64,000 nt of DNA from an uncultured Acidobacteriota bacterium (GTDB taxonomy: Bacteria; Acidobacteriota; B3-B38; Guanabaribacteriales; CAZYAF01): the NCBI GenBank assembly GCA_964645975.1, contig CAZYAF010000010.1, positions 67,682 through 131,681 of the forward strand, given 5' to 3'. Each line of letters begins with the position of its first letter. Position 1 is the stretch's first letter. Shown one piece after another: positions 1,718 to 41,102 of this stretch. Position numbers and translations under genes: made by a program. The notes beneath the pieces were generated by a model. That model made no database searches. It worked only from the letters and a program-made list of their open reading frames with translations, and had not been told where the DNA came from.

Positions 1718-1863
1718 AGATAACAGAACGATACATCGTCGTTAAAAACAGGTCGAAAAAAACAATCGTTCTGCTCCTTACAGGGGAACCTTTTTCCACT
1801 ACAATCAGTCTATACTATTAAAGACAGCTCAGTATTATTGTGTCTTATTATGGGGGAGTAACA

Positions 1864-3375: not shown

Positions 3376-3484
3376 CCACTGACAACCGACGACTGACAAC
3401 TGAAAACCGACCACTGACGACCGACAACTGATTACTGACAACCGGCAACTAATAACTGACCACTGATAACCGACCACTGAATTG
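3376..3484. repeat. Tandem heptanucleotide repeat, about 15 units of YGACNAC (TGACAAC/CGACGAC/TGAAAAC and variants), immediately after the stop codon of the upstream gene
   Basis: The 7-nt periodicity is visible by direct reading. The spurious minus-strand ORF 3160-3477 translates it as SVISCRLSVISCRSSVVGFQLSVVGCQ. Confidence 0.8.
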
Positions 3485-3764
3485 TGGCATTATTAATCAA
3501 TAATTTAATAAAAGTTGTGTCCAGAATTTTCTGTAAATTTATCTCCAACATACTTCTTATACCAAGCAATTCATAGAATAATTAGGCTTTCCGATTTGCT
3601 GAAACACTATCATATTCAGATATCGATTTCCATCAATACTACTATTTTTCAAAAAAATCAATTCCCAGAGAATTTGTAGTTTTAACTTTTACAATTTTAT
3701 AGTAGTATTTAGTTAAGGAATGGCCATTATAAACTTTAAACCTAAATATTAAGGGAGGGTGAGA

Positions 3765-6700: not shown

Positions 6701-6956
6701 GGTAAGGGATAGGGAGGCGAGAATATACCTTGCTCCCAGGTTGTTGGATAAGGTGGGCAGTTTATATGGAACAGTTGAACGTGGAATGGCAGCTCCAACC
6801 AAACATCAGATGGATTATTTAGAAAAATTAAAAGGAGAGTACAAAGAAGCCATCCAGAAAGTTAACTCTTTGATTACAAAAGACTTACCGGCTCTAAATG
6901 ATATGCTCCAGAAGAACAACTTCCCTGCACTTTTTAGGCCACATTTGATCGAGTAA
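3765..6956 (+). CDS. Secreted BNR/Asp-box repeat protein (sortilin/VPS10-like, glycoside-hydrolase-associated beta-propeller) with a C-terminal coiled-coil region
   Basis: Multiple S-x-D-x-G-x-T-W Asp-box repeats are present: STDGGETW, SIDGGLTW, STDGGHNW, SRDGGETW, TQDGGENW, MNSGKTW. Signal peptide. The last ~250 aa are a heptad-like charged coiled coil. RBS AAGGGAGGGTGAGA precedes the ATG at 3765. Confidence 0.7.
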   Translation: MKYYCNPYQIFTKTVRRRICVTALHLLIAVSVMLFMVHPISLAQEKEAAKIDPAIFKNITWRSIGPAIMGGRLTDIEAVADNPDVIYFGTASSGLWKSTNGAITCKQVFGKQPVHSIGDLAIAPSNPGVIYVGTGEDNPRNSISYGNGVYKSTDGGETWQHMGLEDSRHISRVMVHPTNPDIVYVAALGHVWGTNKERGVFMTVDGGKNWKQVLYIDEKTGASDLDMDLSNPNILYAGMWTFQRNPWDHTSGSEKGGIYKSIDGGLTWKKVEEGLPKLIGRIGVKVAQSNPNVVYAITEAKEGTLYRSDDQGESWKKVTNDFNIVSRGFYYTELRVDPKNENRLYAIAGSLQLSTDGGHNWHRIATSVHGDHHTLWISPHNPNFLLNGNDGAIGISRDGGETWENLNTLPTGQFYQITADNQVPFYRVYGGLQDNGSWGGPGRSRTASGIINADWFRIGGGDGFFVVVHPEKPHLVLCESQGGYIQRVDTRTGHTQSLSPQPEPMSGAGAGVHEYRFDWNAPIVLSPHDADTVYLGGNVLFKSTNFGKQWEAISPDLSTNDPKKLESAGGPVRHENTVAEYHCVIISVSESPIQEGVIWVGTDDGQVQLTQDGGENWTNLTKNVKGLPPDGFISHVETSKTAAGAAYMTADRHMLDDLNPYVFRTMNSGKTWENITGNLPAHAYVHVIREDPRNAKILYVGTEIGPFISFTGGKEWYPFKLKNLPTAAVHDIYLHPKTNDLIIGTHGYSIWILDDMAFLQQLSSDVTNSDVYLFEPQKAWRYPIWRKKSSLGEKQFKGTNPAYGALITYYLKAEPEKKTPVKIQILDSQEKIIREIKGTKDVGINRVVWRLQHEAPKSRSPEEAQREQRFRLYGPQAVPGEYTVKLMVGDKTQSKKLQVALDPALEVTEAEIKAQFDASMQLRDMLSSLNLSLRALDGIELQIKNLKETIKREKSEIPQEVSDSFKDMFNKVADLKKMMVRDREARIYLAPRLLDKVGSLYGTVERGMAAPTKHQMDYLEKLKGEYKEAIQKVNSLITKDLPALNDMLQKNNFPALFRPHLIE

Positions 6957-6995
6957 ATTTAGTACAAGATATTTTTTTTAACTATATAATAATGT

Positions 6996-7029
6996 GGAGG
7001 CGGAAAATTTTTCCGTCTCCTTTTTTTTG
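6996..7029 (+). terminator. Rho-independent terminator after the BNR-repeat gene
   Basis: GGAGGCGG-(aaaattttt)-CCGTCTCC is an 8-bp stem with one G-U pair, followed by TTTTTTTT. Confidence 0.6.
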
Positions 7030-16224: not shown

Positions 16225-17661
16225 ATGAAAATTTTACTTCTAAACCCCCCCAGCAAAGATAACAAAAAATTCATCCGAGAAGGAAGATGCACGCAGGAAA
16301 GTAGTTTATGGACTACTGTATGGCCCCCCATATCATTGGCTACCATAGCTGCATTACTGGAAAATGATGGGCATATCGTAAAGGTCAACGATTGTTCTGC
16401 TGAAGCAATCAATCATTCTTCATTAAAAAAGATAATATATGCTTTCTCTCCTCATATAATTATCTGGAGCTCAGGCACACCTTCGATTCAAAGCGATTTG
16501 GAATTATCAAGCTTTATCAAGGCTCTTGACAGCTCAATAAAAACAGCCACTTTTGGCACCCATGTAACTGTGTTCGCGGAGGATTGTTTGCAAGAACATC
16601 CTGATCTGGATTTTATTATTAGAAACGAACCGGAATATACCATAAGGGAATTGGTCTTTGCATTGGAAAAAAGCAGAGGATACAGAACGATTAATGGACT
16701 TAGCTATAGGGATTCTGATAATCATATTATCCACAATCCGGATAGAGCGTTCATAGAAAATATAGATAAGCTTCCCATGCCAGCATGGCATCTTGTCAAC
16801 CTGGATTGCTATAGAATGCCGCTTAAAGGGCATCGTTTTTTAATCGTCTCTCCTCTACGGGGATGTCCTTATGAATGCACGTTTTGCACTACCCAGACAT
16901 ATTATGGGAATAAGGTGCGGAAACGTTCGCCTGAGCGAGTTGTGGAGGAAATAGAATATAATGTTGAGAACTATAATATTAAAAATTTCTTCTTCTGGGC
17001 GGATACGTTTACCCTGGACAAAAAATATGTTAAGAATCTCTGCAGATTGATTATGGATAGGGAATTAAACATTTCGTGGGTATGCAACAGCAGGGTTGAC
17101 ACCGTGGACGAAGAAATGTTAAAAAATATGGCTGATGCCGGCTGCTGGATGATTAGCTATGGCATAGAATCAGGCTGTCAAAAGATACTCGACATTTGTA
17201 AGAAAAAAATTACTGTGGAACAAACAAAAAAAGCAGTTGAATTAGCCAGAAATATGGGGATTAAAACAGTAGGCCATTTTATTATCGGTCTACCAGGCGA
17301 AACAATTGAAACAGCTCAAGAAACTATCAACTTTGCTCATTCCTTACCTTTAGATTTTGCTCAATTTTATTCAGCAGTACCATTTCCCGGTTCAAAGTTG
17401 TATGAGATGGCAAAACAGAATCAATGGATTGAAAATGATAACTGGGAAAAATTTAATCAAACCAGAGTGATAATGAATCTGTCAGATTTAAAACCTCATG
17501 AAGCAGATAAACTTATCAAAAAGGCTTACAAATCTTTCTATTATAGACCCCAAAAAATCTCTGCTGCACTTAAGATGATTCGATTCTCCACCATATGGAA
17601 TTCATTGGTGCAAGCTAATCATTTTATTAAATCTCTCTTAACAAAACAGGAAAGAAGCTAA
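16225..17661 (+). CDS. B12-binding domain radical SAM enzyme (class B radical SAM; candidate methyltransferase)
   Basis: CPYECTFCTT is a CxxxCxxC radical SAM cluster. The N-terminal Rossmann-like B12-binding domain begins MKILLLNPP. A paralogous N-terminus is present at 63894. Confidence 0.8.
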   Translation: MKILLLNPPSKDNKKFIREGRCTQESSLWTTVWPPISLATIAALLENDGHIVKVNDCSAEAINHSSLKKIIYAFSPHIIIWSSGTPSIQSDLELSSFIKALDSSIKTATFGTHVTVFAEDCLQEHPDLDFIIRNEPEYTIRELVFALEKSRGYRTINGLSYRDSDNHIIHNPDRAFIENIDKLPMPAWHLVNLDCYRMPLKGHRFLIVSPLRGCPYECTFCTTQTYYGNKVRKRSPERVVEEIEYNVENYNIKNFFFWADTFTLDKKYVKNLCRLIMDRELNISWVCNSRVDTVDEEMLKNMADAGCWMISYGIESGCQKILDICKKKITVEQTKKAVELARNMGIKTVGHFIIGLPGETIETAQETINFAHSLPLDFAQFYSAVPFPGSKLYEMAKQNQWIENDNWEKFNQTRVIMNLSDLKPHEADKLIKKAYKSFYYRPQKISAALKMIRFSTIWNSLVQANHFIKSLLTKQERS

Positions 17662-17666
17662 AATCA

Positions 17667-19361
17667 ATGTATACATTAGGCATTTGGGATGGCCACGATT
17701 CTGGTGCTGCTCTGCTTAAGGGAGATAAAATTCTGTTTGCCATTAATGAAGAGAGATTAACCCGAAGAAAGTTGGAGGTAGCTTTCCCCCAGAACTCAAT
17801 TGAAGCATGCTTGACCTATTGCAATTTAGCTCCTGAAGATATCAATCACATTGCCATTTCCACGTACGATTTTGCCAAAACCTTAGCCAGGCTTTTCCCC
17901 TCATTTAAAGAGGAATACTATTTGATTCGACGAAGAAAAAAAATGCCAAAAGGATTTACCTATCTCAAGAAGAAGGTGAAATATAAATTAACCGAATATA
18001 AACCGAATGGTTTTTATGAATTCATCAGCAAGCTTGTGGTAGCAAAAAAGTTAAAACAATTAGGATTTGGCGACTTTCAATTACTTTTCCTCAATCACCA
18101 TCTGTGCCACGCAGCAAGCGCTGCCTTCTGCAGCGGTTTTGACGAATGTATTGTGCTCACAATAGATGGCATTGGTGACGGTTTATCAGGAACCATCAGC
18201 ACTTTTCGAGATAATAAACTCAATCTCATTTCATCCATTTCCGGGAAGGATTCCTTCGGAATATTCTTTGAGCATGTCACCAATTTGATGAACATGAGGG
18301 AGCTTGAAGATGAAGGAAAGGTTATGGCTCTGGCCAATTACGCCTATCCCATCGATGATGAAGACAATCCTTTGATGGATTTTTTCCGCGTTGAAGGTTT
18401 AAATATTAAAGCCAAATACAGCACGTTGCAGATATACGACAGGCTCAAGAAAATCCTCTGGAAATATCCTTCTGAACAGTTTGCCTATATGGCGCAGAGA
18501 GTGTTAGAAGCGAAGATAGTTGAGTTAGTTGAAAATATAACCAAAGATACCGCCCTCCGAAAGATAGCGCTTTCCGGTGGAGTCTTTTCAAATATTAAGG
18601 TTAATATGAAAATAAAGGACCATCCACAGATTGAAGATTGCTTTGTCTTTCCGCATATGGGTGATGGTGGCTTGGCGCTGGGTGCCGCTATGTTGGCGAA
18701 TTACGAGCTTAATAGTATTTCTTCCTATAATCTTAGCGATTTATATCTCGGCCTGGAATATACTGACGAGGAAATCAAAAATACATTGGAAAAGCACACT
18801 CTTCATTTTACGCAGGTAAAAGATATCTGGAAGGAGGTTGCACAATTAATAACTCAGGGGAGCATAGTGCTGTGGTTTCAGGGAAGGATGGAAGCTGGAC
18901 CGCGAGCCTTGGGTGCTCGAAGTATTGTAGCAATGTCCGACTCTGAGAAAATCAAGGATAACTTAAATCTTAAGCTTAAAAAAAGAGTGTGGTATCAACC
19001 CTTTTGTCCCACTATGTTGGATAAAGATGCACGAGATTTGCTGCAAAATTATAATAGCAGATCGAATAAATTCATGACTATGGCTTATACGGTCAGAGAA
19101 GATATGCGAGAAGTGGTTAAAGGTGTTATAAACATAGATGGTTCCTGCCGTCCGCAGATTCTTGATAGTAATGAGACATCCTATGAAAAACTTTTGCATG
19201 AAATAAAGAAGCTAACTGGTCACGGAGTCATACTTAATACCAGTTTTAATATTCACGGTGACCCCATTGTTTGTTCCCCAGAGGATGCAGTCAAAACATT
19301 GATTAAATCGAAAGCCGATTATCTGGCAATAGGTAACTATATTGTTAAGGGGGTGGAATGA
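17667..19361 (+). CDS. NodU/CmcH family carbamoyltransferase
   Basis: N-terminus MYTLGIWDGHDSGAALLKGDKILFAINEERLTRRK is characteristic of the Carbam_trans_N family. About 560 aa, typical for O-carbamoyltransferases. Confidence 0.8.
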   Translation: MYTLGIWDGHDSGAALLKGDKILFAINEERLTRRKLEVAFPQNSIEACLTYCNLAPEDINHIAISTYDFAKTLARLFPSFKEEYYLIRRRKKMPKGFTYLKKKVKYKLTEYKPNGFYEFISKLVVAKKLKQLGFGDFQLLFLNHHLCHAASAAFCSGFDECIVLTIDGIGDGLSGTISTFRDNKLNLISSISGKDSFGIFFEHVTNLMNMRELEDEGKVMALANYAYPIDDEDNPLMDFFRVEGLNIKAKYSTLQIYDRLKKILWKYPSEQFAYMAQRVLEAKIVELVENITKDTALRKIALSGGVFSNIKVNMKIKDHPQIEDCFVFPHMGDGGLALGAAMLANYELNSISSYNLSDLYLGLEYTDEEIKNTLEKHTLHFTQVKDIWKEVAQLITQGSIVLWFQGRMEAGPRALGARSIVAMSDSEKIKDNLNLKLKKRVWYQPFCPTMLDKDARDLLQNYNSRSNKFMTMAYTVREDMREVVKGVINIDGSCRPQILDSNETSYEKLLHEIKKLTGHGVILNTSFNIHGDPIVCSPEDAVKTLIKSKADYLAIGNYIVKGVE

Positions 19362-21055
19362 AAGAAAAAGGAAAATACAAAACCAAATTAGTCATCATTT
19401 TTAGCTGTATTCTTTGGCTTGCTATTTTGTATTTATGGATTACGCATTATGAGAATTGGCAGCTCAAAGAACAGCTAAAGTTTATCTCTCCTTTATTTCT
19501 GGCAATAAATTTTTTTCTTATACTATTTTTGGCAATTCTAAATTATAAATCTATCAAAGAACTCTTCACCAATCTTCCCAGGCACATACGTATCATCGTT
19601 ATTGTAATAGCTGTTTTGGGAGCTTTAATGTCAGGGCTAATTCCTGCAAGGACCCACCGCATCTACTATGACGAAACCATCTATCAACATATCGGTCAAA
19701 ACATAGCATATCTGAATAAAGCTCAGATGTGCAATTATGGGGATATAGATTACGATGAGTTCTACTGCCACCAGAGCGAGTATAACAAAGAACCCAATGG
19801 ATACCCCTTTCTATTGAGCATTGCTTACAGGCTGTTTGGCTGCCATGAGAGTGTCTCCTATATAATGAACAATTTGATTTATGGTTTATCTCTACTAACA
19901 ATCTTCTTTATTGCATCAATCTTATTCGAAAGCCACATCGCCGGCATCTACGCATCTCTTATCTTCTGTTTCATCCCGGTAAACCTGATCTGGTCGAACA
20001 ACACCTCAGCCGAGCTGTGCTCCTCGTGCTTCGCCGGGCTCGCCCTTTTAACTATGCTTCTATTTATAAAGAAATCCAAAGTTTTGCTGTTTGTATTAGC
20101 CATCGCAATGCTCGCATTTGCCATTCAGTTCCGCCCCGAATCACCAATGATTATATTTATTGTATTTCTCTCTTTACTCCTGTTTAAAAAAGATATTTTA
20201 AAAGATGAAAAATATTTTCTCTACACTATCATCTCCCTTGTTCTGGTACTACCAGTTGCAGTGCATTTTTATGCCATGAGTGGCGAAGCCTGGGGGGCTA
20301 CTACCAGTAGTAAATTAGCCCTGAAGTATTTTTCGCATAACATCAAAACCAACGGTCTTTTTTATCTCGATAACGTAAAATTTCCCTTGTTATTTTCCAT
20401 TCTCTTTTTCATTGGCATATTCTTTCCTAAAAAATGGAAGGAGAAGTCCGTTATATTCCTGTGGTTCTTTCTATTTTGGGGAATATTCGTCATCTTCTAT
20501 GCTGGAAGCTACGAATATGGAGCGGATGTCCGCTTTTCCCTGGTATCTTATATGCCTCTGGCATTATTAGCAGGCTTTGGACTCAAGCATATGGAGGATA
20601 TCACTTCGAAATTAACCAAGCCCTTTTATCTGAGAACACTGATTGTACTTATATTAATCATAACCTTGCTTAACTTTCTTCCCTATGTCCGTGCTGTGGG
20701 TCAGGAAGCCTGGGGAGCGCGGGCGGATTATGATTATGCAAAAGAGATGGATGAATTGCTGCCTGTGGATTCCTTGATTGTGTCTCATAATCCCAATATG
20801 TTTTTCTTATGGGGAAAAAATGCTGCACAGGCATCCATGGCGACCTATGATAAGCCCCTTTTAGACAGTCTCTTTAATAGATATACCGGAGGGATTTATT
20901 TTCATTACAGCTTCTGGTGCAATGTTCCCGATAAGGTGCAAAATGAATTCTGCGAGAATATCATATGTAATTACAAAACCACCCTGATCAAGGAATATAA
21001 AGAGAAATATTACAGATATGCCCTCTATAAAATCGAAAAGAAAGAAAATGGATGA
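19358..21055 (+). CDS. GT-C fold membrane glycosyltransferase, GT39/PMT_2 (ArnT/protein O-mannosyltransferase-like)
   Basis: Polytopic membrane protein with a YYDE acidic motif in the first extracytoplasmic loop (RTHRIYYDETIYQHIG). Its start overlaps the stop of the upstream gene by 4 nt. Confidence 0.65.
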   Translation: MKEKGKYKTKLVIIFSCILWLAILYLWITHYENWQLKEQLKFISPLFLAINFFLILFLAILNYKSIKELFTNLPRHIRIIVIVIAVLGALMSGLIPARTHRIYYDETIYQHIGQNIAYLNKAQMCNYGDIDYDEFYCHQSEYNKEPNGYPFLLSIAYRLFGCHESVSYIMNNLIYGLSLLTIFFIASILFESHIAGIYASLIFCFIPVNLIWSNNTSAELCSSCFAGLALLTMLLFIKKSKVLLFVLAIAMLAFAIQFRPESPMIIFIVFLSLLLFKKDILKDEKYFLYTIISLVLVLPVAVHFYAMSGEAWGATTSSKLALKYFSHNIKTNGLFYLDNVKFPLLFSILFFIGIFFPKKWKEKSVIFLWFFLFWGIFVIFYAGSYEYGADVRFSLVSYMPLALLAGFGLKHMEDITSKLTKPFYLRTLIVLILIITLLNFLPYVRAVGQEAWGARADYDYAKEMDELLPVDSLIVSHNPNMFFLWGKNAAQASMATYDKPLLDSLFNRYTGGIYFHYSFWCNVPDKVQNEFCENIICNYKTTLIKEYKEKYYRYALYKIEKKENG

Positions 21056-21283
21056 AAGTCCGGACAAACAGCCAGATAGGCTGCGCATATATCGCTAAAA
21101 TAAGGCAATATTATTCTGATAAATAAACACAACCGGAGAATGTTGTTTCTATAATTTCAGGATTAATAAGAAATACCAATAAGCTTTTTTTACATAATTT
21201 CTATTATTTTTGATCCTGGATTAAATGGTGGACGAGCGAGAATTAAAAAAAATTAATTTTTTTGTGAAAGATACCTGAAATAA

Positions 21284-21292
21284 TGGTATAAT
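21284..21292 (+). promoter_or_regulatory. Extended -10 promoter element TGGTATAAT upstream of paralog 1
   Basis: TGnTATAAT consensus lies about 80 nt upstream of the ATG at 21370. Equivalent elements sit upstream of paralog 2 (TGATATAAT, 22899-22907) and paralog 3 (TGGTATAAT, 23928-23936). Confidence 0.5.
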
Positions 21293-21369
21293 GCAAATAT
21301 TATCTTGTTACCATCATTTATTAGAAGAAGTTTATGATGTTTTGTTAATCATTTAAAGGGTAAGACTAT

Positions 21370-22212
21370 ATGAAAATATTATTTTTTCGTAAAGTCAAAG
21401 CTTATAGAGTTTTTATCGTCGGTTTCATCATTCTATTAGGAGCCGTAGCTTTTTATTTGAGCTGCCAGTCGAAATCTCCTACCGATGCTGCCGTACCTTC
21501 GACGGAATCCCTTGCAGCCAGGGATGCGAAAGGTACCACTCAAACAACTACTTCCTCAAGCACAACGACGACGATAAAGCCATTGAGCTCAGCTTCTATC
21601 TCCACGACCATCATCACTTCGCGTAACCTGACCACTACCTCTACCACATCTACTACTACATCAACAACTTCAATTCCAGGTGCCACTACCTCAATAATTC
21701 ACCCGGCTAATGTGAAATTTTGCTATATTATTGGAGTTTATAAACTCATGTGGGATGGTGTTGGCACGCAGCGCGCAAAAGGAGTGTCAAAGGTACCAAA
21801 ACAGATAACCATTTACAATGGCGATACTGTGCACATTCCCTGGGAATATTGCTTGAGCTTAAATTTCTACGTTCATAATGTTGGTGGTTCTCCGGCAGAA
21901 AATGTTAAGATTATTCCTCTATCCGGGCTAGCAACTTCTCAAAATATTTACAGAGGAGTATCTGGTGATCCTACAATTCCTATGCCTGTACTTCCTGAGA
22001 TAGCATTTCTTGCAAATGATGGCGTATGTGTAAAGCATCCACTTAGTTCTTTTTATCAATGCAAGAAAATTCAACTAAATACAGTAACCTCTCAAACTAC
22101 TATTGCCTGTGTGGTGAACAAATTTAAGTTGGACTGGAAAGATGCGAGATGGGATTCAGAATTCAGTTTTACTCAGTGTTATGGATATCCGAATAATTCC
22201 GTTCCCCATTAG
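21370..22212 (+). CDS. Secreted/membrane-anchored mucin-like protein, paralog 1: signal-anchor, Ser/Thr-rich linker, Cys-containing CARDB-like C-terminal domain
   Basis: YLSCQSKSPTDA lipobox-like N-terminus. The TTQTTTSSSTTTTIKPL low-complexity S/T tract is conserved at the nucleotide level with paralog 2. C-terminal NVGGSPAENVKIIP motif. Confidence 0.7.
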   Translation: MKILFFRKVKAYRVFIVGFIILLGAVAFYLSCQSKSPTDAAVPSTESLAARDAKGTTQTTTSSSTTTTIKPLSSASISTTIITSRNLTTTSTTSTTTSTTSIPGATTSIIHPANVKFCYIIGVYKLMWDGVGTQRAKGVSKVPKQITIYNGDTVHIPWEYCLSLNFYVHNVGGSPAENVKIIPLSGLATSQNIYRGVSGDPTIPMPVLPEIAFLANDGVCVKHPLSSFYQCKKIQLNTVTSQTTIACVVNKFKLDWKDARWDSEFSFTQCYGYPNNSVPH

Positions 22213-22424
22213 TATTATCCTTTCTCAAGTGCAAAGGGCTCGATAGTTTGCTAAAACTTGAACAGAAACTATGAATAGTTATTCATAGCAAGCGGATATA
22301 TTCTGTTTAACTTCCGTGCGTTTTTAATGAGAAAGATGTGCTATTTTATTAGTGCATTTTAGAATAGCTTCCATCAGCAATAAAGTTTAAAATCTCCTTT
22401 TATTCATTCAAGTAACTAAGTTAG

Positions 22425-22690
22425 ATTGTGAAAAAGGGATGTTTGTGAACAGGGAAAATTTCTATAAATTTTTTCCTTCCTTGTATTATTCTTCTCTTAG
22501 GTAAGTGTAGTAGCCATCTATTTAAGCTGTACATCCAAATCTCCTGCAGATGCTACTGCACCTTGAAGTGAGACTTTGGCAGCCAAGGGTGCAAATAATA
22601 CAACACAAACAACCTCCTTAATCATCAAAACGACCACCGCACGGCCATCGAGCTCAGCAGCTACTTCCAGTTTACAATTTGTGTTCAGGT
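22425..22690 (+). pseudogene. Decayed fourth copy of the mucin-like paralog family. Start codons are mutated to GTG, there is an in-frame TGA, and the C-terminal domain is lost.
   Basis: Nucleotide similarity to the 5' regions of paralogs 2 and 3. Translation VAIYLSCTSKSPADATAP*SETLAAKGANNTTQTT matches the family. The upstream region is also paralogous. Confidence 0.65.
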
Positions 22691-22979
22691 GGTAGATTAA
22701 TCTTATCTTTGCGGTTGCTAAAATTTTATGAGCTCCAAAAAGAAAAAATATATTCATATAAATATCTTAGACACGATCTTGTTTTCGACTCAGAAGAAAG
22801 ACGCTCGGTATTATTTATTCCTGAACATTGCGAATTTATTTGTTGCAAAATATTTTTGGTACGTTCTCATATTTTTTTATGAAAAAAATATGTTATGGTG
22901 ATATAATATATTTTATATATAAATAGATTTTTAAAAAAGTGAGATAAACATTTTCAACCTTCAAGTAGGAGGGTATATT

Positions 22980-23792
22980 ATGAAGGATAATATTATTATA
23001 GGAAAGAAAAATTACAGCTATTGTATTTTATGTTTTATTCTTCTTATAGGAATTTTAGTTTTTTATTTAAGTTGTGAATCCAAATCTCCCACTGATGCTA
23101 CTGCAGCTTCAACTGAAACCCTGGCAGCCAGAGGTACGAAAGGCACTACTCAAACAACTACCTCCTCCAGCACAACGACGACGATAAAACCCTTGAACCC
23201 GGCTGCTACCGCCAGTACTATCGTCACCTCTCGAAACCTTACTACCACCACTATTGGCGTGCTACCGACGACTACTACAACAATAAGCCAATTACCTGAT
23301 GTGCAGTTTTGCGATATTATGGTACTTTATGAAAGGCGGAATTTTCCAATTCTTAATTCAAAGGGAGTTGTGCCACCAGAAGATCTGCCACATAAATTGT
23401 TTATTAAAAATGGTGGCACCATTAGGATTCCTATCCAGGGGTACTGCGTGAAAATATATGTCCGGGTTAAAAATGTTGGTGGTGCTCCGGCAAATAATGT
23501 TAAGGTTATTCCTGAAAACCTAATTAGTACAAAATATTTTGACAGGCGAGCTATGAATCATTTTGAACCTCCTGTGATTCACACCCTCCCAAATGATAGT
23601 TATTGTAGAGAGCATCCTGTTAGTAATATATTTTGGTATGGCTGTTGGGCTCGGGACGCTGGGCAAATTATAAAATCAACTATATTTTTACCAGAGTGCA
23701 TTGATATTTATTTGAAGCTGCAATGGCAGGGTGCAACGCATGAGCCAAAATTCCAATTTAAAATTTGTTTTTATTGGCCGTATGATGATTAA
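22980..23792 (+). CDS. Mucin-like secreted protein, paralog 2
   Basis: Same N-terminus and S/T linker as paralog 1 (FYLSCESKSPTDATAASTETLAARGTKGTTQTTTSSSTTTTIKPL). The C-terminal domain is diverged and retains KNVGGAPANNVKVIP. Confidence 0.7.
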   Translation: MKDNIIIGKKNYSYCILCFILLIGILVFYLSCESKSPTDATAASTETLAARGTKGTTQTTTSSSTTTTIKPLNPAATASTIVTSRNLTTTTIGVLPTTTTTISQLPDVQFCDIMVLYERRNFPILNSKGVVPPEDLPHKLFIKNGGTIRIPIQGYCVKIYVRVKNVGGAPANNVKVIPENLISTKYFDRRAMNHFEPPVIHTLPNDSYCREHPVSNIFWYGCWARDAGQIIKSTIFLPECIDIYLKLQWQGATHEPKFQFKICFYWPYDD

Positions 23793-24016
23793 TATCATCA
23801 TTTCCCAGTTGCAAAAGATTCGATAAAAAGCTAAAGCTTGAATAAGAGCCATAAATAGCTTTTCGCAGCTATTAAATATATTCTGCTTAGTTCATGTACA
23901 TTATTTAATGAAAAAAATGTGCTAACGTGGTATAATATATATTGCATCTAAGAATTGCCAACCGAAGAAATAGAAAAAAAGCCACTTTTTACTCCTCTAA
24001 GTAGTCAAATTAGATT

Positions 24017-24739
24017 ATGAAAGAGGAATATATGAACAGGCAAAATTTCCACTGGTATTTTATTCTTTGTTTTATTCTTATCTTGGCTGTTGTAGCTTTT
24101 TATGTAAGTTGTAAATCGAAGTCTCCTACAGAATCCACATCAGCATTGAATGGGCAGGTCGCAGGACAGAATGCGAATAGCACCACTCAGACCACCACCT
24201 CTTCCAGCACCACAACTACTGTCAAACCGGAAAGTTCACCTACCAACACCACCACTCTCATTACTTCCAGAAACCTGACAACTACCTCCACTTCTACATC
24301 CACCACAACCTCTATACCAACAACCACTACAACCACAAAAAGACCAACCACTACATCAATAGGAAATCCCTTGTTGAAATGGTGCTCTGTTACGATTAAT
24401 GGAATACCAAGAGGAGAAGTTTATGATATACCACCTAATTCAAAGAAATTAACTATTGGTATTTCCATTAAAAATGTTGGAACAGCTCCTGCAAAAAAAG
24501 TAGCTGCTAACCTATATATTGAAGATCCCTCGGATAATATATTTCCAGTATCTGATGGTTATGAATATCTGGGAACGATTCCGGCTGATAATAAGTGTTA
24601 TGGTTCATCATCAGCTTTTTATATGGAAGTCGTCGGCACTCCTTCGGATGACTGGTGCTGGATTCATATAGTAATAAACGTCCCCGGTTGTAAAAACTGC
24701 TCCATCGATTATTATATTTATATTGATGTAATATACTGA
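24017..24739 (+). CDS. Mucin-like secreted protein, paralog 3
   Basis: FYVSCKSKSPTES followed by an S/T tract and TSRNLTTTS. The C-terminal domain is diverged and Cys-rich, with KNVGTAPAKKVAANLYI. Confidence 0.7.
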   Translation: MKEEYMNRQNFHWYFILCFILILAVVAFYVSCKSKSPTESTSALNGQVAGQNANSTTQTTTSSSTTTTVKPESSPTNTTTLITSRNLTTTSTSTSTTTSIPTTTTTTKRPTTTSIGNPLLKWCSVTINGIPRGEVYDIPPNSKKLTIGISIKNVGTAPAKKVAANLYIEDPSDNIFPVSDGYEYLGTIPADNKCYGSSSAFYMEVVGTPSDDWCWIHIVINVPGCKNCSIDYYIYIDVIY

Positions 24740-25126
24740 TGCAGATTAAATTAATTGAGAAATAGCTTTAACTCTCCAGCGGAACTTTTCGCATCAATTT
24801 AACAACAAAGGAAAGGAAAATAATCTTTAATATATCTTTTTATTAAAACTCAATAATCAGGAGTCTGCTTTAACTAACCGCGTGATTTTAAAGCGTATTT
24901 TTCTTGTCCTCCCCAAACCTGCATAAGAATTTATACTTTCGCCAAAAATGAATCTTCAATATCTATAAGATTTTTTTTATTTAAGGTTATGCGAAATTGC
25001 AAATAGAAAGCAAAAATTGGGTGAACTTTTTTTAAGTATAAAATGGAAGCTATTTCTGGTCATATAAAGTAGGGACAGGCGGCAAAGCCACTTCATTATA
25101 TCAAGCACACAAAGGGCATCCGTGTA

Positions 25127-25164
25127 GGGACAGGGCTTGTCCCTGTCCGAAGCAGCTTTTCGGA
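25127..25164. other. GC-rich pair of overlapping, mutually exclusive hairpins in an AT-rich intergenic region
   Basis: GGACAGGG-cttgt-CCCTGTCC is an 8-bp stem. GTCCGAA-gcagctt-TTCGGAC is a 7-bp stem. The two share the 4 nt GTCC. Confidence 0.4.
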
Positions 25165-25386
25165 CAACCACGAGGGCTGTCTCTACAAAGTATTCCTTCG
25201 TAGAGAAAGAGCTTGATCTTAATGCACAGCAATCTCAAGGCTTGCCATTTTTAGAGGAACCGCAGCATAAGAAATCCTTTACATGAAGAATCTTTTGCGG
25301 TAATTTATAAGTTGTGAATTCAGGTATTTTTCATTTCAAGGTAGTCCCATTATTCTTAGTAATATTAAGGACGACTATTAAGTAAA

Positions 25387-27441
25387 TTGAAGCAAAATAT
25401 TAGAAGCCGTTTTTCTGGTTTTACCCTCCAGGGGAAGCAGCTTCGATTTAGTCAGCACATAGGTATAATTATCTGTTTGCTCCTTGTGGGAGTTATGATT
25501 CGCCTTTATTTTTTCTCCGGCTTTGTGCTGGGGGATGATCCCACCTATGCGCAGTACGTGTCCCTTATCCTGAAGGGAAATTATCCTAAGATTGATGAGT
25601 TTGCCGTTTTTGCCTGTCGCCCAGTGCTTCTTTTTGTTACTGCCATCCCTGTTTATCTGTTCGGCTGGCAGGAGTGGAGCTTCGTGCTCCCCATATTAAT
25701 AGCCTCTCTGCTCAATATTGTAATAATCTATTTAGCAGGCAACAGGTTCCACAGCCCACTGGCCGGAATCCTGGGAGCTCTGGCGTATCTCATCTTTCCC
25801 CTGGATGCGGTTAACGCAACAACATATAGCAATGATATTCTGCTCTCCACCTTTGTCTGGGGTGGGGGGCTTTTGCTTCTTTTCTCTTATAAGAAATTTC
25901 ATCAAAAAAAATATCTCATTTTTACTTTTTTATTAGGCTTCATTGTTGGTGCATCCGTAGGGATTAAGCTCAACGCTCTCGTAGCAGTTGTGCTCTTTTC
26001 AGGAGTTTTGGCTTTCACTTTATGGAAACAATTAAGAAAAGGAGCTTATAAGTCTCTCGTTGCCTGGAGTGTCGGATGGCTTGGAGCCAATCTTTTGCTG
26101 TGCCTTTTCTTTTTCTATCAAAGCGGGAGTTTTCTCGCACATTACCACATTGAAAAAAGGTTCAATTTAGTCCATAAGCCTTCCGGATTTATTCCCGAAG
26201 CAAGCAGCTTAAAATCATTTCTCCTGGTCTATCCAAAATTGATGCTGGGCATAGGGAAAGAAGGTCATTCAGGCTATTTCTTTCTTCCCTATGGCTACTT
26301 TTTTCTATTTTTCCTCTGCTGCTTACCCTTCGCCTTTTCCAAACGTTTCAAAGCATCCAGGTTGCCCATAGTTCTCAGCCTATTCTACTTATTCGTCATG
26401 GAATTTGCCCCCTTACAGTTGCTTCCGCATTATATTCCCATCCATCGGCTGCCGCGTTTTCTGCATATCGCCTCGATGCCCGCAGCAATGGCTATTGGCA
26501 TTACCTTTGCCGTGTTAATAAGGTTTCGCAGCAAAGTTATAAAAATATCTTCCGGGATAATTTTTCTATTCTTAATTATTTCGTCAGTTTATTGGGTTTG
26601 GACGAAAGCTTATTTTTATCAGGATTGCGCTCAGGATAGAAGATGGACCTGGGACACTATCAAGTATCTCTCAGGGAGAGAAATAATAATAGACCCGGAG
26701 ATGTTGAGCTATCTGGAGTTTCGTTCCGGTTATCAACCGGTCATACCTATAAGATTTTTGGAGCAGATGCCCAGGGCATTTTCAAAAGCTACTATAGTAA
26801 TTCTGGATGGGGCCAGGAGACCGGACCTGTATCCCGGGTATGCCAAGGCCTGGAGAAAAGACAAGTATCCTGAGGAAAAGTATATTATCGCCGAAGCGCG
26901 CTTTCCGCTCAAATCCTGGAGACAATCAAATGTGAAAATTTATTATTTGCCTCCTAATATCTCGAATGCATATCATCATACGTCAATAAAGGATATGGAA
27001 AAAATTGGCGAGCTCGATATTGGAAATCCTGACTCTGAAAGGGAGTTTGATTATACCATTGACTTGCAGACCTGGCAGGGATCCAGGGAATTTTCTTATC
27101 CGGGTAGCATTCTTTGCGAGGATGATGGAAGAGCATTCCGTGGAAAAGAAGAATTCACGCTGAACCAGCTATTTCCCAATCGATCACTCATTATTTTAAA
27201 ACGTTATGATCCTGCGGTTCGAAACCAGGAGGTAAAGGTATATTTTAATGATCAATTTATTGGCAGGTGGAAATTTGAAGAAACTCCTCTACACGGAAAG
27301 TGGAGAGAAAGTACGTTTATCATCCCTTCAGATCAGATAAAACACAAAAAAGGTACTCTCAGCTTCTTTTTTCTAAAAAGCGCTTTTGATATTAACAGTT
27401 TTTACTACTGGTTTTACCAGCCAAAGATATCTTCTCAGTGA
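25387..27441 (+). CDS. Second GT-C-type polytopic membrane glycosyltransferase-like protein (GT39/GT83-like), with a C-terminal soluble domain
   Basis: About 12 predicted TM helices. Acidic loop-1 motif FSGFVLGDDPTYAQY. C-terminal ~250-aa periplasmic-type domain. The start is uncertain: a TTG at 25387 in the track, with the first ATG at 25495 falling inside TM1. Confidence 0.5.
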   Translation: MKQNIRSRFSGFTLQGKQLRFSQHIGIIICLLLVGVMIRLYFFSGFVLGDDPTYAQYVSLILKGNYPKIDEFAVFACRPVLLFVTAIPVYLFGWQEWSFVLPILIASLLNIVIIYLAGNRFHSPLAGILGALAYLIFPLDAVNATTYSNDILLSTFVWGGGLLLLFSYKKFHQKKYLIFTFLLGFIVGASVGIKLNALVAVVLFSGVLAFTLWKQLRKGAYKSLVAWSVGWLGANLLLCLFFFYQSGSFLAHYHIEKRFNLVHKPSGFIPEASSLKSFLLVYPKLMLGIGKEGHSGYFFLPYGYFFLFFLCCLPFAFSKRFKASRLPIVLSLFYLFVMEFAPLQLLPHYIPIHRLPRFLHIASMPAAMAIGITFAVLIRFRSKVIKISSGIIFLFLIISSVYWVWTKAYFYQDCAQDRRWTWDTIKYLSGREIIIDPEMLSYLEFRSGYQPVIPIRFLEQMPRAFSKATIVILDGARRPDLYPGYAKAWRKDKYPEEKYIIAEARFPLKSWRQSNVKIYYLPPNISNAYHHTSIKDMEKIGELDIGNPDSEREFDYTIDLQTWQGSREFSYPGSILCEDDGRAFRGKEEFTLNQLFPNRSLIILKRYDPAVRNQEVKVYFNDQFIGRWKFEETPLHGKWRESTFIIPSDQIKHKKGTLSFFFLKSAFDINSFYYWFYQPKISSQ

Positions 27442-27480
27442 GCACAGAATAATTTATTGATTCTGTAATAATTTGGAAAA

Positions 27481-28311
27481 CTACTTGAGTTTCCTGCGCA
27501 TCAGATTAAGTAAGTCAATTCTATTCTTGCTGTTAATTGTTGGTGCATTAAGGATTTGCATTTCATCAAATGCAGCGGGGATTACCTGTTCATCACTTAC
27601 CTTCTGGATAACAAATGTTTGCCCGGTAAAGCCACTTTGATAGAATCTTCCATCAATTCTATCAAATAACTTATTCGGCTCCGCTTCAATAATAACCGCT
27701 GTATACATTCTCCTTTTATCAGCCCACATCATGTCAATAGTATCGTCAGTTTTATATCTACCGGTAATCTCATCATTATAGATTGTGTGACCTTTATATT
27801 TCCAGATTACTTCGCCGCTCAGGTCTCTGTCCTGCTGAAGCAAATATAACTTCAACGCAACGTCTTCTCCATCCCAATTGAGCCAACCAGTCCAGCCTCC
27901 AGTTAACGCTCTTACAGTAATCGTTTTTGATGAGCTGGTTTCTGTTCCATTATTATCAGTAACGGTTAACGTTGCCTGGAATGCTCCAGCGGACCTATAG
28001 ATGTGGTTTACTATTTTGCCCTGTTTGGAATTCCCGTCTCCAAAATCCCATTTATAGCTGGCGATGGATTTGCTGCTCAACGATTGGCTTTTAAGAGTGC
28101 CACTGGTGTCGCTGGAGCCGCTGGCATCGAATTGTACTTTAAAAGGACAATTGCCTTTTGCAGCACTAACAGCGAAGGTGGATGTTGGGGGTGTATTGGG
28201 TTGTGTAGGGCTTGCAGGAGATGATTCTTTATCATCACAAGCAATGAAGGCAAGCAGTGAAAGGAGACAAATTAATAATAGCTTAATATACCTCATGTCC
28301 CTCCCTTTCAT
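27481..28311 (-). CDS. PKD-domain lipoprotein
   Basis: Lipobox LAFIACDD. PKD signature YKWDFGDGNSKQG...ATLTVTDNNG. AAGGGAGGG RBS near the internal ATG at 28296. Confidence 0.7.
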   Translation of the reverse strand: MKGRDMRYIKLLLICLLSLLAFIACDDKESSPASPTQPNTPPTSTFAVSAAKGNCPFKVQFDASGSSDTSGTLKSQSLSSKSIASYKWDFGDGNSKQGKIVNHIYRSAGAFQATLTVTDNNGTETSSSKTITVRALTGGWTGWLNWDGEDVALKLYLLQQDRDLSGEVIWKYKGHTIYNDEITGRYKTDDTIDMMWADKRRMYTAVIIEAEPNKLFDRIDGRFYQSGFTGQTFVIQKVSDEQVIPAAFDEMQILNAPTINSKNRIDLLNLMRRKLK

Positions 28312-28622
28312 ACGTTAAAAATGGATACTGTTTTTATTATATATACCAATTTGAAAATCGAAAAAAAACCTAACATAAATGCCTTGCTGCTTGGCATTAT
28401 TTAATACACACCGTGTTGAATTATTCCAATGATACTATTTAATTTTAGTCTATGTTAAAATTAAATTTTATAAAAGTCAAGATTTTAAATTTAAAAATAA
28501 TGATTTGATGAATTGAAGATTTACCCAGAGATATTAACGAGATTATAATAACTGCTTGATTTGACAATTAATAGCTACCAAGATAATTTGCAGGTTGATA
28601 GGAAGTAAGTTGTTAAAAACAA

Positions 28623-28672
28623 TGGCACGCCCAGAGGGATTCGAACCCCCGACCTTCTGATCCGTAGTCAGA
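28623..28672 (-). tRNA. Partial tRNA-Arg(ACG), 3' half only: anticodon arm, variable loop, T-arm, 3' acceptor strand and CCA. The D-arm and 5' acceptor strand are absent.
   Basis: Minus-strand sense reads TCTGA-CTACGGA-TCAGA (anticodon arm, anticodon ACG), AGGTC, GGGGG-TTCGAAT-CCCTC (T-arm), TGGGCGT-G-CCA. No complementary ACGCCCA strand or D-arm is found in the next 50 nt. Confidence 0.7.
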
Positions 28673-28998
28673 ACAAGGGATTTTTTAAGATATCTGTAAA
28701 CTATTGAAAAATAAGCTAACTCTCTTATCACGCAACTATTTACAAGGATTTTAGATTCTCTCACTTTTCCTCATTTTTCCTCACTTTTCATTTCAATTAC
28801 CACACTTTTACCACACTCAGTAAATGCATAGGTTTTAATATTAATATTATTGTCTATAAATTATGTTATATAGAATAGATATCTCTAATTAAAAAATAAT
28901 TACAGGAAGGCAATGTTTGATGTTATGGTAAAAAACCACTTGCTGATAGAATATATATTAATATATCTGGAAAGGAATTTTTGAATATTAGATGCTCA

Positions 28999-30825
28999 TT
29001 ATTTTAGGTTCATTTTATTGAGCAATGAAGTGAAGCGAGGATCCGAGCGCAAGCTATCGAAACTTGGACTTGTTTTGATCATAAGTAGTCTTGGATCACG
29101 CTCTCTGTATGCTTTTTCTAACCATTCAAAAGCAAGGTCCTTTTTATTTAGCCCAGTATAAATTAATGCTATTGAAACCGGAGGGAGATATTTAACCTTA
29201 GATAACTCTAATGATTCGTTAAGCAGCTTTTTAGCTTCAGCTTGCTTTCCTGCAAAGGCATATCTGATTGCCAGAAGTGGTTTTAAAGAAAAATTCGATT
29301 TTTCTGTTAATTGCTGTGCTTTCTGTATCTCTACAATAGCTGTCTCTTCTTTTCCCAACTTTGAATAAATAATCCCTAAATACCAATAAGCTACCCAAAA
29401 ATGAGGATCAAGTGAAAGAACCTCCTGCAATTTTTCTATTGCTTGGTCATATTTACGTGCATAATAAAAAAGAATAGCAGCATCTGCTCCTATAATGAGA
29501 GACAAAGGATCGAGCATTTGGGCATATTCAATTTCTTCAATGGCTTCCTCGATTCTTCCCATATTTGTTAAATACCATGCATACCAATGATGAGCAAAAG
29601 AATAATTTGGATTTAATTCAATTGCTCGTTTAAATTCTCTCTCAGCCTTTGGAAAGTTCCAATCATAATTTTTGTAAACAAATGCCAAGGAAGCATGAGC
29701 TTCAGCAATCCGGCTATCAATTTCTAAAGCTTTTATTGCTGCAGATTTTGCCTTGGGAAAAACTTGCTTCGGTGATTGAAAAGCATAATCTGCAAGCAAA
29801 TTATAGCTATCTGCTATTCCTACGTAAGCAAGTGCAAATTTTTTTTCTTTTTCAAGTGCCTTTTTGTAATATTCTATGCTGTTATTTATTCCTGCTTCTG
29901 TTCTTTTGTTCCAGAAATAGCGTCCTTTTAGATAGAGATTATAAGCTTCTGTATTACGAGGGCAATTATTTACTAATAAATCTCTCTGTTCTTTTTTAAG
30001 TTCTATATTCAACTCACGAGCAATTTCCTGCGCAATTTCATCTTGAATAATAAAAATACCTTTAAGCTCCTTATCATAAGTTTTTGACCAGATTTGCGAA
30101 GCATCTTTTGTATTAATTAGATGCACAATAACACGAATGTCATTGTTTTCTTTTTGAATACTGCCTGTGAGAATTGTTTCTACTCCAAGTTCTTTGCCCA
30201 TTTCTTCAATGTTTTTATCAGTTTCTTTATAATGTATTACTGATGTCAGAGAAATCACTTTAAGCTCTTGTATTCTTGCAAGCTTACTAATAATTGTCTC
30301 AGCTATTCCATTACAGAAATACTCCTGATTTTTTTGAGGGCTTAAATCTTTAAAGGGTAATACAGCGATAGATGTTTTATCTTTTCCTAGTATTGATATG
30401 TTAGTTGCTTTTTCTGTCATAAAAATACGATAAATAATGATAGCTAATACTATTACGCATATTGATGTTAGAGCAACAAATAGTTTCTTACGTATTTTCA
30501 AATATTTTTTTGGAGAAGTTAATTTCATCTTTTCTTTTGTTTTGCTTAAATCCTTCTCTTTTTGTCTTCTTTTTTCTGGCTCTTTTTCAGGTTGAATTTT
30601 GGAGGTTTCTTCGCTCCTGGTTTTTAGATAAGGTTCTCCTTCCCCTGTTAGCAGCCAATTAATATTTATATTTTTAGCTTTAGATAGTTTATCTAAAAAG
30701 TCTGCTTTGGGAATTCTACCCTTAAGATAATTGTCTAAGGTCTGACGATGTATACCTAATTCGCGAGCAAACTGGGCAACATTCTCTCCTACAATTTCTT
30801 TTAATCTATCAGCGATATTTGACAT
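28999..30825 (-). CDS. Membrane-anchored one-component regulator: N-terminal XRE-type HTH, a basic linker, one TM helix, a TolB_N-like domain and C-terminal TPR repeats
   Basis: HTH QFARELGIHRQTLDNYLKG. TM LFVALTSICVIVLAIIIY. IAVLPFKDLSPQKNQEYFCNGIAETIISKLARI is a TolB-N-like motif. Multiple TPR-like repeats run to the C-terminus. Confidence 0.65.
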   Translation of the reverse strand: MSNIADRLKEIVGENVAQFARELGIHRQTLDNYLKGRIPKADFLDKLSKAKNININWLLTGEGEPYLKTRSEETSKIQPEKEPEKRRQKEKDLSKTKEKMKLTSPKKYLKIRKKLFVALTSICVIVLAIIIYRIFMTEKATNISILGKDKTSIAVLPFKDLSPQKNQEYFCNGIAETIISKLARIQELKVISLTSVIHYKETDKNIEEMGKELGVETILTGSIQKENNDIRVIVHLINTKDASQIWSKTYDKELKGIFIIQDEIAQEIARELNIELKKEQRDLLVNNCPRNTEAYNLYLKGRYFWNKRTEAGINNSIEYYKKALEKEKKFALAYVGIADSYNLLADYAFQSPKQVFPKAKSAAIKALEIDSRIAEAHASLAFVYKNYDWNFPKAEREFKRAIELNPNYSFAHHWYAWYLTNMGRIEEAIEEIEYAQMLDPLSLIIGADAAILFYYARKYDQAIEKLQEVLSLDPHFWVAYWYLGIIYSKLGKEETAIVEIQKAQQLTEKSNFSLKPLLAIRYAFAGKQAEAKKLLNESLELSKVKYLPPVSIALIYTGLNKKDLAFEWLEKAYRERDPRLLMIKTSPSFDSLRSDPRFTSLLNKMNLK

Positions 30826-30843
30826 AATTTATTTACCCATATT

Positions 30844-30898
30844 AAAAGCAACAAATAGTTGATTTACTCTTGACAAAGCAACAAACAGTTTATATAAT
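30844..30898 (+). promoter_or_regulatory. Consensus sigma70-type promoter (TTGACA-N17-TATAAT) flanked and interrupted by a 15-16 nt direct repeat AAGCAACAAAYAGTT, a candidate operator
   Basis: TTGACA is at 30870-30875 and TATAAT at 30893-30898. Repeat copies are at 30845-30860 and 30876-30891. The site lies between the divergent regulator gene and the downstream genes. Confidence 0.55.
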
Positions 30899-39671: not shown

Positions 39672-40202
39672 ATGAACCAAATAGTTGACATAAAAAAGGA
39701 TGAAAATAATTTTAAATGGTATGCCATTTATACACGGAGCCGACATGAGTTTAAAGTCAACAAAGAATTATCTCGAAAGCAATTTGACACATTCCTTCCC
39801 GTAGCTAATTCTTTACGGCGCTGGAAAGATAGAAAAAAGTATATAGAAACTCCCTTATTTCCCGGTTATTTATTCATAAATTGTCAGATGGATAATTATA
39901 AACATTTAGAGATTCTGAAGACTAAAGGTGTGGTGCGAGTTTTGGGGATAAATAAAAAGGAGTTATCTACCATCCCGCATGAAGAGATAGAATCGATCAG
40001 GATATTAACCGAGAATAACGCCACCATTAACTCCCATCCCTATGTGAAAGAGGGGAGTAGCGTAGAGATAATAAGCGGACCTTTAGCTGGCGCTAAGGGG
40101 ATTTTGATCGAAAAGGACGTGTATAAATCCACCATAGTTGTATCTATTCACCTTTTAGGAAGAAGCATCTCGGTGGAAGTAGATAGCTGTGATATCAGGT
40201 AA
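39672..40202 (+). CDS. NusG-family specialised paralog (UpxY/LoaP-like transcription antiterminator), copy 1
   Basis: NGN domain KWYAIYTRSRHEFKVNKEL...FPGYLFIN. C-terminal KOW-like segment GSSVEIISGPLAGAKGILIEK. Confidence 0.75.
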   Translation: MNQIVDIKKDENNFKWYAIYTRSRHEFKVNKELSRKQFDTFLPVANSLRRWKDRKKYIETPLFPGYLFINCQMDNYKHLEILKTKGVVRVLGINKKELSTIPHEEIESIRILTENNATINSHPYVKEGSSVEIISGPLAGAKGILIEKDVYKSTIVVSIHLLGRSISVEVDSCDIR

Positions 40203-40565: not shown

Positions 40566-41102
40566 ATGAATTCCACGATATGCAATCAAGAATTAGATAA
40601 ATCTCTTAAATGGTATGCTATATATACCCGAAGTAGACATGAATTTAAGGTAAATCAGGAATTAGCTCGAAAGCAATTTGACACCTTTCTGCCGGCAGTT
40701 AAATCTCTGCGACGTTGGAAAGATAGAAAAAAATACATAAATATCCCTTTGTTCCCCGGATACTTATTCCTCCATTGTCAAATGGATGATCATAAATATC
40801 TAGAGATTCAGAAGACTAATGGTGTGGTAAAAGTTCTAGGGAAAAATAAAAGGGAATTGTTCTCTATTCCAGATGAAGAGATAGAATCGGTCAGGATATT
40901 AACCGAGAATAAAACAACCATTAAGCATCATCCCTATGTGAAAGAGGAAAATAGTATAGAGATAGTAAATGGTCCTTTAGCTGGAACAAAGGGAATTCTA
41001 ACAGAGAAGGACTCGCATAAATCCACCATAGTTGTAACTATACACCTTATAGTAAAAAGCATCTCATGTGAAGTTGATAATAGCGATATTGAACCTTGTT
41101 GA
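40566..41102 (+). CDS. NusG-family specialised paralog (UpxY/LoaP-like), copy 2, a tandem duplicate
   Basis: About 70% aa and about 80% nt identity to copy 1 over the NGN and KOW regions. Confidence 0.75.
   Translation: MNSTICNQELDKSLKWYAIYTRSRHEFKVNQELARKQFDTFLPAVKSLRRWKDRKKYINIPLFPGYLFLHCQMDDHKYLEIQKTNGVVKVLGKNKRELFSIPDEEIESVRILTENKTTIKHHPYVKEENSIEIVNGPLAGTKGILTEKDSHKSTIVVTIHLIVKSISCEVDNSDIEPC

Follow-up and report, generated by a model that had tools for sequence, protein, structure and literature searches.

A 50-nt piece of a tRNA-Arg(ACG) gene on the minus strand of the 64,000-nt stretch of DNA analysed here (the window) is, with a probability that we put at about 85%, the attR of a tyrosine-integrase island inserted in a single-copy tRNA-Arg(ACG) gene, between a gene for a PKD-domain lipoprotein and an ATC-hydrolase/AraC gene pair. 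The attP of the element would have brought its own copy of tRNA positions 27-76 with a short trailer, recombination in the shared segment would have restored a whole tRNA at the end near the integrase (attL, which is on another contig), and the host's original 3' part would have been displaced to the distal end, where it now occupies positions 28623-28672. One boundary of a large variable region is in this way fixed to the base (28672/28673), and the division between island and core genes is corrected. Islands in tRNA genes with displaced 3' fragments are textbook knowledge, and the present one is an ordinary case in an uncultured lineage.

The displaced fragment and the unoccupied site

Read along the minus strand from 28672 to 28623, the fragment consists of an anticodon stem-loop with the anticodon ACG (TCTGA-CTACGGA-TCAGA), a 5-nt variable loop (AGGTC), a T arm with one G-U pair (GGGGG-TTCGAAT-CCCTC), the 3' acceptor strand (TGGGCGT), the discriminator (G) and CCA. 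It thus corresponds to positions 27-76 of tRNA-Arg(ACG) in canonical numbering, with the D-arm and the 5' acceptor strand absent, and it reaches the tRNA 3' end, discriminator and CCA included, as do the end fragments of the Islander catalogue. All 50 bases are identical to those of the intact tRNA-Arg(ACG) on two contigs of the same population (L113 and L018) and on contigs of two relatives (L024 and L025), while directly 5' of position 27 the identity to the intact tRNA falls to 0 nt. ARAGORN made no tRNA call across the 64 kb window, and Rfam found nothing there at its gathering score; at a relaxed threshold the Rfam tRNA model scored 20.5 bits, below the gathering score of 29, and aligned to nothing but the anticodon and T arms. 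A search for the 3'-terminal 32 nt gave one match in the window and, in 100 shuffles, none. The preliminary description of this DNA had proposed an orphan 3' half of tRNA-Arg(ACG), and that proposal is borne out; the full-length tRNA that it had named as the contrary outcome was not returned by the tRNA search of the window. A full tRNA with an aberrant D-arm was considered and is ruled out by the ARAGORN and Rfam results together with the loss of identity upstream of position 27. An open reading frame of 73 aa with a GTG start (28543-28764, minus strand) spans the fragment and has been annotated as a gene in some JGI records, almost certainly in error. Neither the window nor the adjoining 16.8 kb on the right showed any similarity to an integrase or excisionase.

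The state of the locus before insertion is seen in the relative L025, in which both flanks adjoin an unoccupied attB. A single contig of this relative carries, in order, radical SAM, carbamoyltransferase, GT-C, two paralogs, GT-C, PKD (minus strand), the intact tRNA-Arg (minus strand), ATC-hydrolase (84% identical) and AraC. Its alignment with the window covers 25472-28672 at 88% identity and ends exactly at the 5' edge of the fragment, and from the tRNA onward L025 aligns instead to the chromosomal flank on L018. In a six-way alignment, the window sequence past the CCA was homologous to the tRNA trailer of L025 (B'), and upstream of position 27 the window was unrelated to the tRNA; the attL sequences, for their part, shared the upstream flank of L025 and parted from it 18 nt past the CCA. 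The window, L113 and L025 therefore stand in the classical relationship of attR, attL and attB.

This comparison also bears on which side of the fragment is island. A 3' fragment lies downstream of its tRNA, and since the fragment is on the minus strand the island should lie at higher coordinates; it starts at 28673, and the inserted DNA fills 28673-64000 of the window, is absent from L025, and runs on to at least window-equivalent position 80,800. To the left of the fragment lie the PKD-domain lipoprotein gene (27481-28311, minus strand), a GT-C/PMT_2 gene, an array of small paralogs, a second GT-C gene, a carbamoyltransferase gene and a radical-SAM gene. The PKD, GT-C and paralog genes had been read previously as island content, an assignment that has to be reversed, because they adjoin the intact tRNA-Arg in the empty-site relative (91% nucleotide identity for the PKD gene, on the B' side) and, with L024 giving the same picture, are conserved chromosome. 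Base composition agrees modestly with an island on the right: GC is 38.0% at 7-28.6 kb, 32.4% at 28.7-64 kb and 30.4% in the next 20 kb, with 36% in the integrase module and 35-37% in the ATC-hydrolase flank. Within the left flank, three paralogous genes of 240-280 aa with low-complexity, mucin-like N-terminal regions occupy 21370-24739; the copy number of this array varies among strains: L025 has two, and in L028 and L029 copies are altered or truncated. Positions 1-7000 have a GC content of 48-53% as against 30-40% elsewhere, with a sharp step near 7 kb; they encode an amidohydrolase, a beta-lactamase-fold/TPR protein and a BNR/sortilin-type protein, and no mobility gene was seen there.

The same site is occupied differently in the relative L024 (JGI 3300034378, Ga0374085_145636). 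By blastn, positions 1-1722 of that contig match window 27101-28825, so that the same arm and fragment are present, with the fragment decayed to 38/51 identity, and the cargo beyond the arm is unrelated. This cargo (L024 1723-9600) is an 8-kb stretch encoding a 1246-aa CARDB/Big_7/Peptidase_C25 protein, a 385-aa protein, a WD40 protein and a 263-aa protein, and next to the intact tRNA of L024 neither an integrase nor the P' motif described below is left. In a scan of GTDB with an alignment of the ATC-hydrolase flank protein, 80 loci were obtained, the best at 56% identity, in Acidobacteriota/Aminicenantes-type and other MAGs; a tRNA-Arg stood beside the ATC-hydrolase homologue in 0 of the 24 GTDB loci checked, so that the scan yielded no synteny and, as to taxonomy, no more than a vague indication. 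Among the strains compared, the tRNA-Arg site is a variable hotspot: L025 has nothing inserted there, L024 has 8 kb of protease/WD40 cargo, and the strain of the window has 64 kb or more.

The integrase-side junction and the att sites

A search of JGI metagenomes with an exact 47-nt piece of the fragment matched a single contig, L008; the same search gave 0 matches in GTDB genomes and 0 in IMG/VR, and the arm motif likewise had 0 matches in IMG/VR. L008 carries an intact tRNA-Arg(ACG) with the ATC-hydrolase gene upstream and, directly downstream on the other strand, the C-terminus of a tyrosine recombinase (LGHSSIEMTERYSHL). It shares with the window 68 nt at 97% identity (tRNA 27-76 plus 18 nt) and, separately, the 23-mer GAGTGTGGTAAAAGTGTGGTAAT at 100%. 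Longer contigs (L018/L112, sample 3300005782) were reached by searching with the ATC-hydrolase protein. On these, the intact tRNA is followed by genes for a 356-aa integrase, a 106-aa HTH protein of the excisionase family (TIGR01764, above the cut-off), a 534-aa protein, a ParB-like protein and a HerA/DUF87 ATPase with small ORFs, and beyond these by a TPR/CHAT protein and then a protein kinase. The contig L113 (Ga0309839_1000070, 105 kb) comes from the same sample as the window, 3300028837; it begins inside the element, has the intact tRNA-Arg at 12285-12361 on the minus strand, and shares 14.3 kb with L112 at 100% identity. On L113, L112 and L018 the end of the integrase gene lies 14 nt from the CCA of the tRNA. 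The preliminary description had named a second copy of the segment as a test and had allowed that the other boundary and the integrase might lie outside the window; all three were found on L113, the second copy being the intact tRNA-Arg beside which the integrase lies. Its view that a displaced tRNA 3' piece is typical of insertion by a tyrosine integrase is backed by the empty site and by an attL that carries such an enzyme.

The integrase, which lies within the interval on the attL contig, matches Pfam PF00589 (3e-37) and phrog_1 (7.5e-80); the L113 copy is full length, with the RKGE, HDLRH, LGH and RY motifs intact. In L011, by comparison, the integrase gene has an in-frame stop and one degenerate copy of the motif is left. 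With the window fragment perfect and the cognate integrase intact, the earlier suggestion that the element had been excised or had decayed finds no support. Pfam detected no arm-binding domain at the integrase N-terminus (residues 1-68 and the whole protein, E<=10), the recognised parts being SAM-like/Int_N and catalytic alone; about 55 N-terminal residues lie ahead of the SAM-like domain, and a divergent domain there is conceivable. In IMG/VR the integrase had one distant match (25% identity) and the HerA-like protein none. The PHROGs matches were to the integrase, the excisionase-type HTH protein and the ParB-like protein and to nothing else, with no capsid, terminase, tail or lysis gene among them, and the element is thus no recognised virus. 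No relaxase, coupling protein or type IV secretion gene was found in the 18.6 kb by the integrase or in the 52 kb by attR; the HerA/DUF87 ATPase has a faint match to VirB4-like models. Deep in the integrase-side module, L112 366-4557 (Ga0079367_1000018) encodes a 290-aa Ser/Thr kinase that PADLOC likens to mad6/PD-T4-6 (2.7e-30) and a 1091-aa TPR/CHAT protein, and the HerA-like ATPase has a weak PADLOC match to mad8; the kinase, CHAT and HerA genes may be defence-type cargo.

The two junctions define the core of the att sites. Between attL on L113 and attR in the window there is a perfect block of 57 nt (28672-28616, minus strand), upstream of which identity is zero; the following 11 nt hold two mismatches, which gives 68 nt at 97% overall. 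The match accordingly comprises tRNA positions 27-76 and the 18 nt beyond the CCA, and these 18 nt (28605-28622, minus strand) form an extended common core, or tRNA trailer, that attB, attL and attR share and that is polymorphic at +8, +11, +14 and +18. Strand exchange must have taken place inside the 57-nt block, which begins at the 5' base of the anticodon stem and so belongs to the anticodon-centred class. The anticodon stem (TCTGA/TCAGA) with its 7-nt loop has the geometry expected for core binding sites around an overlap region, although the T arm would suit equally well; judged by where the identity starts, the crossover most probably lies at the anticodon stem-loop. For this strain the expected attB junction is GATTAGAGCA followed by TCTGAC...GCCATTGTTTTTAACAACTTACTTCC, and the expected attP junction is AAATCCCTTGT followed by TCTGAC...GCCATTGTTTTCAATAACTTACGGCAA; neither of the two was recovered. 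The result is of use for the annotation and binning of these metagenomes and supplies a natural integrase/att pair with a 57-nt core.

On the island side of the core, attR has a P arm of ~153 nt (28673-28825, minus strand) that is 82% conserved in the independent strain L024. It contains, at 28796-28818 on the minus strand, the 23-mer GAGTGTGGTAAAAGTGTGGTAAT, made up of two direct copies of GTGTGGTAA 11 nt apart, and an identical 23-mer stands on the P' arm beside the intact tRNA, within the last codons at the 3' end of the integrase gene. The distance between the GTGTGGTAA doublet and the core is 124-146 nt in attR and 28-50 nt in attL, with no further copy of the doublet within about 400 nt; the attR of L024 keeps both copies. 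Three tandem 10-mers, GAAAAGTGAG, GAAAAATGAG and again GAAAAGTGAG (28760-28789, minus strand), stand between the doublet and the core and are partly conserved in L024. We considered whether the motif upstream of the fragment might be a leftover of the integrase 3' end (a 14-aa tblastn match), but the likeness does not extend beyond the 23-nt motif, no copy of the core precedes it, and the arm from motif to core is conserved as a unit in L024. A 14-nt stretch of the P arm (28720-28733) matches the excisionase gene region of L113 exactly (E about 0.02), probably by chance.

In lambda-type heterobivalent att systems, arm-type sites are present on both the P and the P' arm, and Xis sites lie in the P arm. 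The present att sites resemble these in having a short motif that flanks the core on either side, nearer on one arm than on the other, tandem repeats between the P-arm motif and the core, and an excisionase-family gene upstream of int; they differ in that the integrase has no arm-binding domain known to Pfam, in that the P' motif falls within integrase coding sequence, and in that binding is here deduced from sequence. By this likeness the GTGTGGTAA doublets are candidate arm-type integrase sites, their repetition on both attP arms being what a heterobivalent integrase would call for, and the 10-mers are possible sites for an accessory protein of the excisionase type.

Extent and history of the island

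The window is part of the JGI record Ga0309839_1000032 (175,009 bp; sample 3300028837), with window coordinates equal to record coordinates minus 94,209 in the same orientation. Three samples, 3300005782, 3300008516 and 3300008517, contain contigs that match window 17481-30660 at 100% identity, and in 3300005782 and 3300008517 the attL contig or its flank gene is present as well. A T/C difference at +8 tells the sequence downstream of the core in the window from that on the integrase side. The Logan contig L010, which equals the left flank of the window, ends 30 nt (k-1) before this difference, and L031, which equals the same flank, ends exactly at 28672; such ends are the branch points expected of a 31-mer graph if a second core-bearing junction coexists in the sample.

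From the synteny with L024 and L025 and from this co-occurrence, we infer that the window contig and L113 are contiguous. When the two contigs are placed collinearly, as are the flanks in L024 and L025, the fragment and the tRNA have the same orientation, with the fragment downstream. Read from the fragment, the island would begin with the arm of ~150 nt bearing the GTGTGGTAA doublet and the three 10-mers, continue through the gene of an HTH-TPR regulator and two or more loci for exopolysaccharide, and most likely end with the genes for the HerA-like ATPase, the ParB-like protein, the excisionase-family protein and the integrase next to the intact tRNA. With 52.1 kb on the window contig and 12.3 kb on L113, it would measure at least about 64 kb, and with the sister contigs L115 and L112 (sample 3300005782) probably ~90 kb. 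The window contig has no tRNA and no integrase up to its right end (window-equivalent 80,800).

The first island gene (28999-30825, minus strand) encodes a 608-aa regulator with a CI-type HTH and TPRs in a CadC/HilA-like layout, by Pfam and NCBIfam. It is followed by module 1, with genes for Wzz/tyrosine kinase, CpsB, Wzy, two NusG-like proteins and glycosyltransferases, and with dTDP-sugar genes; a second polysaccharide module occupies the right part of the contig beyond the window, and the sister contig L115 adds only more polysaccharide genes. At a distance of 38 kb on the right, the 608-aa gene has a truncated HTH-TPR paralog encoding 277 aa, so that the copies bracket module 1 and each precedes one module. 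At the nucleotide level they form a direct repeat of 1.3 kb with 82.6% identity (window 29584-30875 and window-equivalent 68849-70138, the latter about 8243-9532 on L012). In four or more other assemblies, contigs stop at these repeats (near 30,660 and near 69,200), and the breaks are attributable to the paralogous HTH repeat. The surface-polysaccharide loci of this uncultured organism thus sit in a tRNA-Arg integration hotspot, the content of which differs by strain.

The perfection of the window copy bears on how the island came to be there. The non-coding DNA next to the fragment is 16-18% different between the window and L024, while the window fragment has undergone zero changes, which suggests, as far as the sequence can tell, recent insertion or continued use; the island may still be able to excise. 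A more far-reaching proposal is that a single island, still excisable and carrying two complete, separately regulated exopolysaccharide loci, extends from 28673 up to the intact tRNA-Arg, a distance of at least 64 kb and probably about 90 kb, and that the perfect attR, as against the decayed L024 copy, reflects ongoing use. This proposal is tentative, and we consider it somewhat doubtful; if it were true, the bacterium could gain, lose or swap its surface-glycan repertoire in one integrase-catalysed step.

A different history, which we regard as unlikely while taking it seriously, is that of tandem accretion, in which the fragment would be the attR of an older, integrase-less polysaccharide element and the integrase/excisionase/ParB/HerA module would have been inserted later into the regenerated tRNA. 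The window fragment would then be a relic, which the present integrase may or may not use. Tandem arrays at tRNA genes are documented (PMC4383910), and the hotspot does hold other cargo behind the same arm in L024, namely 8 kb with a C25 peptidase and WD40 protein and no integrase; the GC content of 30-32% in the polysaccharide modules versus 36% in the integrase module would be in keeping with accretion but fits a single element equally. Accretion is, however, at odds with the negative outcome of a search for internal tRNA-Arg fragments, which covered 52 kb rightward of the window fragment, 18.6 kb leftward of the intact tRNA, and L115, and with the arm motif, which is identical to that beside the present integrase. 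Furthermore, the 50/50 identity of the window fragment versus 38/51 for the integrase-less L024 copy suggests that the window copy is young or in use.

Considerably less probable is a rearranged relic, in which an inversion or translocation would have parted the fragment from its attL and the DNA to the right would be ordinary chromosome. Such a reading draws on the indirect nature of the contiguity and on the several assemblies that break inside the island at the 1.3-kb repeat. Against it, in both relatives that span the site, L024 and L025, a single contig carries the PKD gene together with the tRNA/ATC-hydrolase locus, with no change in their relative orientation, the window and L113 are oriented as simple collinearity would require, and the HTH repeat accounts for the breaks. 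That the fragment is an in-situ pseudogene, a second tRNA-Arg that lost its 5' third by deletion or non-specific insertion and with no site-specific recombination, is hardly credible: the window itself would offer nothing beyond a truncated tRNA without an integrase, but the empty-site relative has one intact tRNA exactly there, the truncation falls at the first base of the anticodon stem as in the commonest attP class, the same arm motifs stand beside attL and attR, and the intact copy has an integrase gene directly next to it.

Relation to known islands

The preferred reading, that the fragment is the attR of an integrase-borne island, places the element beside several large tRNA-borne integrative islands with adaptive cargo, among them those of the clc and PAPI-1 type. 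The 611-kb Mesorhizobium symbiosis island is likewise a large tRNA-borne island (PMC4383910). The present element is similar to these in its length of tens of kb, its insertion at a tRNA 3' end, the genes for a ParB-like protein and a large ATPase near its integrase end, and its non-phage cargo; unlike them, it has no relaxase or type IV secretion genes in the parts seen. Islands in tRNA genes of this kind are catalogued in Islander (Hudson, Lau & Williams 2015, PMC4383910, citing Williams 2002), which takes a full tRNA gene and a cognate end fragment on one replicon with a tyrosine integrase in an interval of 2-200 kb, and filters by configuration for a 3' fragment downstream of the tRNA gene on the same strand. 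The anticodon-centred class is the commonest there, with 2083 of 3919 islands (PMC4383910). The present element shares with the Islander islands the intact tRNA and the displaced 3' fragment, which would have the same orientation if the two contigs are collinear, the integrase by the regenerated tRNA, the start at the anticodon stem and a cargo unrelated to mobility; it departs from them in that its ends lie on two metagenome contigs, in its uncultured sediment host, with a flank protein at about 56% to the nearest genomes, and in its two polysaccharide loci.

Several minor features of the polysaccharide DNA may be recorded here. The tandem NusG-like genes (39672-40202 and 40566-41102) are UpxY-type antiterminator-like paralogs with 79% identity over 474 nt, and the locus also contains short repeats at 42265-42415/43414-43563 and 44583-44748/45982-46146. 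At the right end of Ga0309839_1000032 (L012 20125-20194), the public record contains an assembly artefact, a Nextera adapter (CTGTCTCTTATACACATCTCCGAGCCCACGAGAC...ATCTCGTATGCCGTCTTCTGCTTG) followed by poly-A.
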